A DNA stretch of 4,709 bases. Source: a virus (Duplodnaviria; Heunggongvirae; Uroviricota; Caudoviricetes). Location: the IMG/VR virus record IMGVR_UViG_2695420847_000008, one strand, 5' to 3'. Shown here piece after piece: positions 1,631 to 4,709 of the stretch. Every line of letters starts with the position of its first letter. The first letter of the stretch is position 1. Below the pieces are notes generated by a model that was not told the DNA's origin, did not search any database, and saw only the letters and a list, made by a program, of their open reading frames with translations. The position numbers and the translations under genes were made by a program.

Positions 1631-2350
1631 ATGCTTAATACTGTAAAAATATCCAGTTGTAAGTTAATCAACGCTGATTGCCTGGAATTTATCCAGACCT
1701 TACCGGAAAACTCTGTCGATCTGATAGTCACAGACCCGCCATACTTTAAAGTGAAGCCCGAGGGCTGGGATAACCAGTGGAAGGGCGACGATGATTACCT
1801 GAAGTGGCTGGACCAGTGTCTGGCGCAGTTCTGGCGGGTGCTGAAACCTGCCGGAAGTCTTTACCTGTTCTGTGGCCATCGCCTGGCATCTGATATCGAA
1901 ATCATGATGCGTGAACGCTTCAGTGTGCTGAACCATATTATCTGGGCGAAGCCGTCCGGACGCTGGAACGGATGCAACAAGGAAAGCCTGCGGGCGTATT
2001 TCCCCGCCACAGAGCGCATTCTGTTCGCGGAACATTATCAGGGGCCGTATCGTCCGAAAGATGCCGGGTATGCGGCGAAGGGCAGTGCACTGAAACAGCA
2101 TGTGATGGCCCCGCTGATTTCTTACTTTCGTGATGCGCGAGGCGGGTCTGGCAGACTATCAGTTCGGTTGTTACAGACGCCTTCCGCAGTGAAGGCTTTT
2201 TTATTTGTGGTAAATGGGCGGCTGGTGGGTGTTAGGGGCACCCACCAGCCATCTGCTCATGCGTTGGGTTCACAAGCAAACCTCAGGCCCACTGCTTTGC
2301 GCAAAAGCAGAATGAGCCTATCAGAGACAGGCTTAATGATCCATGCTTAA
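1631..2350 (+). pseudogene. Truncated N-terminal fragment of a DNA methyltransferase (about 170 aa authentic sequence plus about 69 aa out-of-frame extension), created by the tandem duplication
   Basis: The 239-aa ORF matches the intact gene through ...PLISYFRDAR, then reads the duplicated small-ORF tail and leader out of frame (GGSGRLSVRLLQTPSAVKAF...), stopping at TAA 2348-2350. It retains the DPPY catalytic motif but lacks the C-terminal FxGxG AdoMet-binding motif. Confidence 0.7.
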
Positions 2351-2852
2351 TACTGTAAAAATATCCAGTTGTGAGTTAATCAACGCCGACTGCCTGGAAT
2401 TTATCCGGTCGTTACCCGAAAATTCTGTTGACCTGATAGTCACGGACCCGCCGTACTTTAAAGTGAAGCCTGAGGGCTGGGATAACCAGTGGAAGGGCGA
2501 CGATGATTACCTGAAGTGGCTGGACCAGTGTCTGGCGCAGTTCTGGCGGGTGCTGAAACCTGCCGGAAGTCTTTACCTGTTCTGTGGTCATCGCCTGGCA
2601 TCTGATATCGAAATCATGATGCGTGAACGCTTCAGTGTGCTGAACCATATTATCTGGGCGAAGCCGTCCGGACGCTGGAACGGATGCAACAAGGAAAGCC
2701 TGCGGGCGTATTTCCCCGCCACAGAGCGCATTCTGTTCGCGGAACATTATCAGGGGCCGTATCGTCCGAAAGATGCCGGGTATGCGGCGAAGGGCAGTGC
2801 ACTGAAACAGCATGTGATGGCCCCGCTGATTTCTTACTTTCGTGATGCGCGT
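2141..2852 (+). repeat. Tandem direct duplication, copy 2 (712 bp), continuing into the intact methyltransferase gene
   Basis: See copy 1. After 2851 the sequence continues with TGCTGCTCTGGGG (intact gene), whereas copy 1 is followed by the duplicated GGCGGGTCTGG segment. Confidence 0.85.
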
Positions 2853-3401
2853 GCTGCTCTGGGGATAACGGCAAAACAGATTGCAGATGCCACAGGAAAG
2901 AAAAACATGGTGTCGCACTGGTTCAGTGCCAGTCAGTGGCAGCTACCGAACGAAAGCGATTATCTGAAATTACAGTCGCTGTTTGCCCGGGTGGCAGAAG
3001 AGAAACATCAGCGGGGTGAACTGGAAAAGCCACATCACCAACTGGTCAGCACATACAGTGAGCTGAACCGGCAGTATACGGAACTGCTGAGTGAATATAA
3101 AAATTTGCGGCGGTATTTCGGTGTGACGGTGCAGGTGCCGTACACCGATGTGTGGACGTACAAACCGGTGCAGTACTATCCAGGGAAACATCCGTGCGAA
3201 AAACCGGCAGAAATGTTGCAGCAGATAATCAGCGCAAGCAGTCGTCCGGGAGACCTGGTTGCAGATTTCTTCATGGGGTCGGGGGCGACAGTGAAAGCAG
3301 CGATGGCGCTGGGACGTCGTGCAACTGGCGTTGAACTGGAGACTGAACGTTTTGAGCAGACGGTGCGGGAAGTACAGGATTTAATCATTCGTAACGGATG
3401 A
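2343..3401 (+). CDS. DNA methyltransferase, N6-adenine/N4-cytosine family (beta-class permuted; PF01555-like), probably an orphan phage N6-adenine MTase
   Basis: 352-aa ORF. The N-terminal region has DLIVTDPPYF (motif IV, DPPY) and RVLKPAGSLYLF. The C-terminal region has KHPCEKPAEMLQQII...GDLVADFFMGSGATVKAAMALGRRATGVE (motif I FxGxG, AdoMet binding). This order of motifs is typical of beta-class amino-MTases. A middle segment (AALGITAKQIADATGKKNMVSHW) looks HTH-like. No adjacent restriction endonuclease gene is visible. Confidence 0.88.
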   Translation: MLNTVKISSCELINADCLEFIRSLPENSVDLIVTDPPYFKVKPEGWDNQWKGDDDYLKWLDQCLAQFWRVLKPAGSLYLFCGHRLASDIEIMMRERFSVLNHIIWAKPSGRWNGCNKESLRAYFPATERILFAEHYQGPYRPKDAGYAAKGSALKQHVMAPLISYFRDARAALGITAKQIADATGKKNMVSHWFSASQWQLPNESDYLKLQSLFARVAEEKHQRGELEKPHHQLVSTYSELNRQYTELLSEYKNLRRYFGVTVQVPYTDVWTYKPVQYYPGKHPCEKPAEMLQQIISASSRPGDLVADFFMGSGATVKAAMALGRRATGVELETERFEQTVREVQDLIIRNG

Positions 3402-3441
3402 GATTGCGGAGTTAATCATGCGTCGTTATTATTCAGCAATC

Positions 3442-3517
3442 GGCCCTTTAGCTCAGTGGTGAGAGCGAGCGACTCATAATCGCCAGGTCGCTGGTTCAAA
3501 TCCAGCAAGGGCCACCA
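3442..3517 (+). tRNA. tRNA with CAU anticodon, most likely tRNA-Ile2 (lysidine type, ileX/ileZ-like), alternatively tRNA-Met
   Basis: Manual cloverleaf: acceptor GGCCCTT/AAGGGCC, D-arm GCTC-AGTGGTGA-GAGC, anticodon loop CTCATAA (anticodon CAT), T-arm GCTGG-TTCAAAT-CCAGC, discriminator A and an encoded CCA. The sequence closely resembles E. coli ileX as I recall it. Confidence 0.8.
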
Positions 3518-3524
3518 TCACATA

Positions 3525-3601
3525 CCGCCATTAGCTCATCAGGAAAGAGCGCCAGCTTTCGAAGCTGGTTGCGCGGAGTTCGGGTCCCCGAAGGCGGTCC
3601 A
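3525..3601 (+). tRNA. tRNA-Arg (anticodon UCG), with non-canonical features; possibly degenerate
   Basis: Manual fold: D-arm GCTC-ATCAGGAAA-GAGC; anticodon arm CCAGC-TTTCGAA-GCTGG (anticodon TCG); T-loop TTCGGGT; 3' TCCA. Irregularities: A-A mismatch in the acceptor stem (position 6:67), A-C mismatch in the T-stem, and G rather than A at position 58. Confidence 0.55.
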
Positions 3602-3614
3602 TTATCTGTATCCT

Positions 3615-3691
3615 GCGTTGTTAGCTCAGCCGGACAGAGCAATTGCCTTCTAAGCAATCGGTCACTGGTTCGAATCCAGTACAACGCGCCA
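3615..3691 (+). tRNA. tRNA-Arg (anticodon UCU, reads AGA/AGG)
   Basis: Manual cloverleaf: acceptor GCGTTGT/ACAACGC, D-arm GCTC-AGCCGGACA-GAGC, anticodon arm ATTGC-CTTCTAA-GCAAT (anticodon TCT), T-arm ACTGG-TTCGAAT-CCAGT, discriminator G and an encoded CCA. Architecture resembles argU. Confidence 0.85.
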
Positions 3692-3705
3692 CACTTATTT
3701 TCCCT

Positions 3706-3731
3706 GGCTCGCTTTTGCGGGCCTTTTTTTT
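3706..3731 (+). terminator. Rho-independent terminator downstream of the tRNA cluster
   Basis: 7-bp stem GGCTCGC (3706-3712) / GCGGGCC (3717-3723) with one G-U pair and a TTTT loop, followed by 8 T (3724-3731). Confidence 0.65.
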
Positions 3732-3964
3732 AAATATCTCACAATTCAGGCGGTTGACTGTTGTCTGGTTTGCGGGGAGTTTGTTAAAAGAAACTGGCAT
3801 GGTGAATCCCCCTGTGCGGAGGGGCGATCAGCAACCAGGTATATGGGATAATCGCGGATTCAGGTGCTGATACTGAATTCACCGGGAGGCACCCGGCACC
3901 ATGCTTTGCCACAAAAGTGTTGTTTCTGTTTTTCTCAAACTATCATCGTTATCCCTTTATTTCC

Positions 3965-3991
3965 GGCTGCGCATGGCGTGGCCTTTTTTTT
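3965..3991 (+). terminator. Possible second rho-independent terminator in the tRNA-to-nanS gap
   Basis: Stem GGCTGCGC (3965-3972) / GCGTGGCC (3976-3983), 8 bp including two G-U wobbles, with a 3-nt loop, followed by 8 T (3984-3991). Confidence 0.4.
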
Positions 3992-4077
3992 ACGACCAGC
4001 CACTGGCAGATGGCCATCCTGTAATTTGATTCCGGTTCCGGCTTTTTAACTCTGTTCCTGTACACGGGAGAAATTCG

Positions 4078-4709
4078 ATGTCGATTAAACATTATGATGT
4101 TGTCAGGGCGGCGTCGCCGTCAGACCTTGCGGAAAAGCTGACACATAAACTGAAAGAGGGCTGGCAGCCGTTTGGTAGTCCGGTGGCCATAACCCCTTAT
4201 ACCCTGATGCAGGCGATTGCAGCAGAAGGTGATGTGGTGGTCAGTGGTGCAACTGAGCCGGAGTGGTACTACGTCATCGTACTGGCCGGGCAGTCCAATG
4301 CCATGGCTTACGGTGAAGGGCTTCCGCTGCCGGATTCATACGATGCTCCGGATCCGCGTATTAAACAGCTGGCGCGCCGCAGTACAGTGACGCCGGGTGG
4401 GGCTGCCTGCAGATATAACGATATTATTCCGGCCGACCACTGCCTGCATGATGTGCAGGATATGAGTACGCTGAATCATCCGAAGGCAGACCTGAGCAAA
4501 GGGCAGTACGGCTGTGTCGGCCAGGGCTTACATATTGCCAAAAAACTGCTTCCGTATATCCCGAATAACGCGGGGATCCTGCTGGTACCATGCTGTCGTG
4601 GTGGTTCGGCATTCACCCAGGGCGCGGAGGGGACATTCAGTGCGGACACGGGGGCCAGCCAGGATTCGGCACGCTGGGGTGTGGGTAAACCGTTATATCA
4701 GGACCTGAT
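4078..4709 (+). CDS. nanS: Prophage sialate O-acetylesterase NanS-p-like protein (N-terminal DUF1737-like region plus SGNH/DUF303 esterase domain); 3' end outside window
   Basis: ATG at 4078 with GGGAG at 4066-4070. Frame 1 is open to the window end (210 codons, no stop; not in the supplied ORF track because it is incomplete). Translation MSIKHYDVVRAASPSDLAEKL...VIVLAGQSNAMAYGEGLP... contains the GQSN block typical of SGNH hydrolases. Both sequence and position (downstream of the phage tRNAs) match nanS-p/yjhS homologues of O157-type prophages as I recall them. Confidence 0.8.
   Translation, partial: MSIKHYDVVRAASPSDLAEKLTHKLKEGWQPFGSPVAITPYTLMQAIAAEGDVVVSGATEPEWYYVIVLAGQSNAMAYGEGLPLPDSYDAPDPRIKQLARRSTVTPGGAACRYNDIIPADHCLHDVQDMSTLNHPKADLSKGQYGCVGQGLHIAKKLLPYIPNNAGILLVPCCRGGSAFTQGAEGTFSADTGASQDSARWGVGKPLYQDL

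Follow-up and report, generated by a model that had tools for sequence, protein, structure and literature searches.

The window, by which we mean the whole 4,709-nt stretch of DNA analysed here, is a segment of the late region of a lambdoid prophage. Its left part carries a RusA gene (139-498) and a gene for a DUF1133/Q-like antiterminator (507-1058), both assigned with Pfam, followed by a 65-aa ORF (1283-1480), the end of which recurs further downstream in the window. The 5′ part of a methyltransferase gene runs from 1631 to 2139, and a full-length N6/N4 DNA methyltransferase of 352 amino acids is encoded on the plus strand at 2343-3401. Three tRNAs (3442-3691) follow, and a DUF1737/SASA esterase gene begins at 4078. 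When its letters are read continuously, the window also contains a 239-aa ORF on the plus strand (1631-2350), which has the appearance of a truncated methyltransferase fused to a leader.

Membership of the PF01555 family was judged by the Pfam gathering threshold. The product of 2343-3401 scores 148.3 bits against the N6_N4_Mtase model (cut-off 26.7) and covers model positions 1-219 of 221; the match of the 1631-2350 ORF is limited to model positions 1-105, the first half of the model. Read from the translation, the 352-aa protein displays the catalytic (D/S)PPY motif as DPPY (residues 36-39; TDPPYF at 34-39) and the AdoMet-binding FxGxG motif as FMGSG, within DFFMGSGAT near residue 310, C-terminal to the DPPY motif. 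By its score and by this order of motifs, the product is a predicted beta-class amino-methyltransferase of PF01555.

The late-region methyltransferase (PF01555) of Stx-converting and lambdoid phages is found between Q and an ileZ-argN-argO-type tRNA cluster. Records of Stx2a phages share with the window, at 93-94% identity, the order RusA, Q-like gene, small ORF, methylase, three tRNAs and esterase. ARAGORN calls the first tRNA (3442-3517) Met, with the anticodon CAT, and RefSeq calls the identical gene in relatives tRNA-Ile; this disagreement probably reflects the ambiguity usual for CAT anticodons modified with lysidine. The Ile/Arg/Arg trio forms the cluster found ahead of stx in Stx phages. 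In the best-matching phage records, stx2A and stx2B separate the tRNA cluster from the esterase gene, whereas no stx genes occupy this position here: the interval in the window (3692-4077), likewise in its closest relatives, amounts to only about 385 nt, where RefSeq annotates two minus-strand pseudogene fragments. The prophage is therefore an stx-free relative of the Stx2 phages. Outside the window, just upstream of the DUF968/RusA genes, the closest single-copy prophages (those of NZ_CM136167.1 and O39:NM F8704-2) encode a DNA cytosine methyltransferase together with a type II restriction endonuclease of the NgoMIV family, which form a restriction-modification pair (within positions 1-1632 of the locus sequences compared).

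Ungapped comparison of 1429-2139 with 2141-2851, both on the plus strand, reveals a 711-nt repeat at an offset of 712 with exactly 14 mismatches (copy 1 positions 1661, 1675, 1678, 1695, 1697, 1699, 1705, 1711, 1717, 1720, 1732, 1741, 1759 and 1876). An earlier note on this DNA had listed 14 differing positions from manual comparison, and the exact alignment returns every one of them. Thirteen fall within a patch of 99 nt, which the note had put at about 100 bp (1661-1759 in copy 1 and 2373-2471 in copy 2, plus strand); apart from 1876, the rest of the 711 nt is identical. The patch comprises codons 11-43 and is located just upstream of the DPPY motif and across it. The remaining mismatch is an isolated synonymous SNP on the plus strand, C at 1876 and T at 2588. 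Three amino acids differ between the copies: K11E, as the note had it, and Q22R and T23S, which it had numbered one residue too low (Q21R, T22S). The other 10 patch substitutions are in third positions and synonymous. Ten synonymous changes stand beside 3 replacements, at least two of them (Q22R and T23S) conservative, and this pattern gives no hint of diversifying selection. When 14 sites were placed uniformly, either on the 711 nt or on just the 509 coding nt, not one of 200,000 placements brought 13 sites into a 99-nt span (the maximum was 11). The differences are not evenly spread, and the observation of the note is confirmed.

The public record from which the window derives, CYAO01000081.1 of the draft assembly GCA_001283385.1, equals the whole window with a single difference: base 2140, an A in the window, is an N in the record. 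The window thus consists of two contigs (1-2139 and 2141-4709, both taken on the plus strand) that were scaffolded with a single-base gap between them, and the presence of the two copies in one DNA molecule is not established. The left contig is identical to NZ_CM136167.1 throughout. The A at 2140 matches neither the T found at 1428 and 2852 nor the C of NCTC86-type sequences. It seems that letters replaced the ambiguity codes before the window was scanned, which can disguise scaffold gaps as sequence elsewhere too. The junction in the window consists of ...GATGCGCG, the gap base, and then GGCGGGTCTGG..., and the 239-aa ORF is the product of reading across this gap. The protein of this ORF is matched by one contig only, namely the source record, in which the N blocks an identical translation. 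Two inverted repeats occupy 1467-1494 and 1500-1535: directly 3′ of the stop codon of the 65-aa ORF there is a terminator-like hairpin followed by a T-run, and the leader contains, 5′ of the methyltransferase start, a second G+C-rich inverted repeat, GGCTGGTGGGTG...CACCCACCAGCC. Both elements fall inside the overlap, and the scaffold therefore shows each of them two times.

The layout recurs in a sister assembly, GCA_001283425.1 (CYDB01000091.1), which has one N at its position 928. Its right contig begins 3 nt later, with GGGTCTGG as opposed to GGCGGGTCTGG, and the rest is identical. The two assemblies have neighbouring accession numbers and probably share project, pipeline and clone, and they therefore lend weak independent support to either view of the locus. 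No record spanning the junction exists among 5,426 complete E. coli genomes and 50,697 phage records, and searches for the exact junction in IMG/VR, the GTDB representative genomes and the JGI metagenomes gave 0 matches. A tandem duplication would be recognized by a defined, novel junction that is reproducible between independent assemblies; what we find is an N, a contig start that shifts by 3 nt, and a junction with no match.

In the three closest complete E. coli genomes (NZ_CM136167.1, NZ_CM176579.1 and NZ_CP050998.1), the full 4,709-nt query is covered in 3,997 bp, which is 4,709 minus 712, and these genomes therefore carry one copy. If copy 1 is kept and copy 2 is removed, the window equals NZ_CM136167.1 at 3,996 of 3,997 positions; if copy 2 is kept, the 14 sites differ in addition to that one position. 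Copy 1 is therefore the allele of this prophage lineage, and we call it N-type. Copy 2, which we call D-type, is 100% identical over its 711 nt (2141-2851) to at least 30 complete genomes, those of NCTC86 and 09-02E among them, and 453 records are at least 99% identical to it. The proposal of the earlier note that the copies derive from two different methyltransferase alleles is thus right. Searched as 136-nt stretches, the D-type patch (2355-2490) is the majority allele, with 1,122 records at 99% identity or more, and the N-type patch (1643-1778) is present at this level in 219 E. coli records, in 5 of them at 100%. Genes related to this methyltransferase occupy up to 8 places per genome. Taken together, these sequence comparisons present the 14 differences as differences between two paralogous prophage alleles.

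The ends of the contigs bear a close relationship to the limits of allele similarity. The left contig ends at 2139, the last base before the N-type and NCTC86-type alleles diverge: beyond it, T stands against C at 2140, further differences follow at 2143 and 2146, and the divergence after 2139 is heavy. The sister scaffold starts at window position 1213, exactly where the similarity between the two types begins, with dense differences up to 1212 and then none until 1417. From 1283 to 2139, the N lineage equals the NCTC86-type except at 1417, at the 13 patch sites and at 1876. The D-type flank sequences are CTGACCCAGCTGG (with C at 1417) and GATGCGCGCGCGGCCCTGG. The D-type state spans at least 2373-2588; to the left of this, back to 2141, the N-type and D-type sequences are the same and hence uninformative. 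As 2139 and 1213 coincide with the limits of similarity between allele types, the contig ends fall on repeat boundaries. The overlap, in turn, extends fully to both facing contig ends and leaves no base over at the end of the left contig or at the start of the right one. In terms of de Bruijn k-mers, no consistent k explains why the right contig starts at the equivalent of 1429 or 1432 rather than 1418, which directly follows the SNP at 1417, and this start may be the result of end trimming or of gap-filling extension.

The gene of the right contig as a whole combines a D-type patch with an N-type 3′ part. This combination is found in no complete genome, the best match, at 98.9%, being the N lineage itself. 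Five ENA metagenome contigs (L008, L010, L011, L012 and L013) carry a single-copy gene that encodes exactly the 352-aa protein of copy 2, with a D-type patch on an N-type backbone. Their switch points differ: position 1876 is either C, which accompanies the D-type patch in L008 and L013, or T, and the D-type state sometimes extends through 2146. The SNP at 1876 varies independently within the N lineage as well, for O39:NM F8704-2 has T together with an N-type patch. Throughout, the D-type patch on an N-type backbone is confined to contigs of short-read isolates and metagenomes, and the N-N-N haplotype is present in closed genomes. The former may represent real recombinants, or chimeras made by assemblers that keep the commoner variant at each bubble. 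As a D-type patch with an N-type 3′ part is seen outside complete genomes only, either patch state may be the one truly present at this locus.

Mosaic (modular) recombination among lambdoid and Stx-type E. coli prophages is well established. We aligned the region comprising the 65-aa ORF and the methyltransferase gene from 15 loci. As in other lambdoid mosaics, near-identity switches sharply to 5-15% divergence along the stretch from Q through the 65-aa ORF and the methyltransferase to the tRNAs. The N-type patch is found on unlike flanks in O26:H11 11368, E2348/69, ETEC1732, AUSMDU00014361 and the Stx2 prophage of O157:H7 PV15-279, and the D-type patch is common to NCTC86, 09-02E, CB7453 and another prophage of O157:H7 PV15-279. 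Each state of the 99-nt patch thus occurs on several backgrounds, and co-resident prophages can differ in state, as both states reside in the one genome of O157:H7 PV15-279. None of this is unusual for lambdoid phages; the only points of difference are that the tract measures just 99 to about 216 nt and that it is located within a gene and not at the boundary of one. On the evidence of these alignments, the patch is an old two-state segment, about 13% divergent, that has been moved among backgrounds by recombination. The clustering of the 14 differences in 99 nt follows from the recombinational mosaicism of this gene among E. coli prophages; the mosaicism of the patch belongs to the gene throughout this prophage pool and is not an event between tandem copies at this locus. 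Mosaic recombination, which the earlier note had put forward beside gene conversion, accounts for the restriction of the allele difference to the patch, but a later conversion of a real tandem copy is not supported.

False duplications that arise beside a scaffold gap from duplicated overlapping contigs have been described by Kelley & Salzberg (2010, PMC2864568). In that class of artefact, as here, the facing ends of adjacent contigs align with high but imperfect identity across a gap, and the result looks like a recent tandem duplication, the 'divergence' of which is really allelic variation. The two versions in PMC2864568 are the haplotypes of a diploid, whereas here, in a haploid bacterium, they would most likely be paralogous copies in different prophages. 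Joins based on read pairs, as made by SSPACE and GapFiller in a widely used bacterial pipeline, leave N gaps and possibly false joins (PMC5320598). Considering (i) the two separate, adjacent contigs with a gap between them, (ii) the alignment that reaches right to their facing ends, where a distance of about 10 bp would be allowed, and (iii) the single copy in close relatives, we regard the 712-nt 'tandem duplication' as very probably an artefact of scaffolding, of the duplicated overlapping contigs type. The tandem duplication and the truncated fusion ORF are not real features. Chimeric assembly, one of the origins considered in the earlier note, is the operative explanation in view of the single-N gap in the source record and the N followed by a 3-nt shifted contig start in the sister.

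We envisage the following course of events. The isolate would carry the N-lineage prophage and at least one other prophage with an NCTC86-like 5′ block. The regions comprising the 65-aa ORF and the 5′ part of the methyltransferase gene in the two prophages would be near-identical over about 930 nt (1213-2139) and unlike elsewhere. One contig of the short-read assembler would have entered this shared block from the left with the N-type allele and another from the right with the D-type allele, and the 14 mismatches would have prevented the merging of the contig ends. Read pairs would then have linked both contigs, and the scaffolder would have placed one after the other with an N in between. In reality the locus most likely holds one gene, as in NZ_CM136167.1.

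Several alternatives to an un-merged contig overlap deserve consideration. The end of the 65-aa ORF, the leader and the 5′ half of the methyltransferase gene could have undergone a true partial tandem duplication, with the N as just one uncalled base and with a foreign 5′ patch in one copy, obtained from a co-resident prophage either through gene conversion or through a template switch onto it while the duplication arose. This would agree with the same order of segments in two assemblies and with the internal consistency of each copy, in which all 14 sites are phased. Such a duplication is nevertheless improbable, given the N at the junction and the 3-nt shift of the right-hand start between the sister assemblies. 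The left contig, moreover, ends exactly at the boundary between allele types, as is expected for a repeat-induced break and not for a random endpoint; a unique junction would normally be assembled through without a gap; the junction was found in no other genome or contig of any collection searched; and the nearest relatives are single-copy. The possibility that the region duplicates is raised by CB7453, which has an N-free, perfect 454-nt tandem duplication of the 5′ end of the same gene. In the locus compared from this chromosome-level assembly (L004, from NZ_CM144245.1), 3117-3570 and 3571-4024 are 100% identical and cover the leader and the 5′ part of the homologous methyltransferase gene, which RefSeq annotates as a partial plus a full DNA-methyltransferase. 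The endpoints differ from those of the overlap in the window and the copies are identical; the duplication could be real or an error of long-read assembly. We consider it very unlikely that the order of the scaffold is right and reflects a heterogeneous partial tandem duplication, created in one step by template switching between prophages, with the N hiding the true base. Were this the case, it would show that illegitimate recombination between prophages makes new gene fusions in the late operon.

A mixed culture or a contaminating second strain could have supplied one of the two versions, the scaffold join again being artefactual. It would give the same picture of overlapping contig ends, and as both alleles are common in E. 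coli, any second strain could have brought the D-type block. However, several related methyltransferase genes per genome (in up to 8 places) are the rule, both patch states are found in one closed genome, so that no mixture is needed, and the identical sequence was obtained from the assemblies of two separate isolates; we therefore give this explanation little credence. Other routes to the junction were set aside. A perfect duplication followed by gene conversion is made unnecessary by the N at the junction. For a Campbell-type insertion of a circularised 712-nt D-type fragment, the donors have C and the N-type has T at 2140, and the record has no A there; the same absence of an A from the record, together with the C of NCTC86-type donors, speaks against a recombinant in which the A at 2140 is the next base of the donor. 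A template switch at microhomology, for which GGCGGGTCTGG and TGCTGCTCTGG match at 8 of 11 positions, is neither needed nor supported given the gap.

The un-merged contig overlap thus carries a caution: a single ambiguous base shown as an A made it resemble a diverged tandem gene duplication with a truncated fusion ORF, and anyone who counted gene families, called pseudogenes or inferred gene conversion from draft scaffolds of this kind would reach wrong results. The shuffling of both patch states among prophage methyltransferase genes also accounts for the breaks and false joins that short-read assemblers make here. What is left once the artefact is removed is lambdoid mosaicism of the ordinary kind, in a methyltransferase family already known, and the two-state patch, often with both states in the same genome, is nothing unusual in the mosaic biology of these phages.
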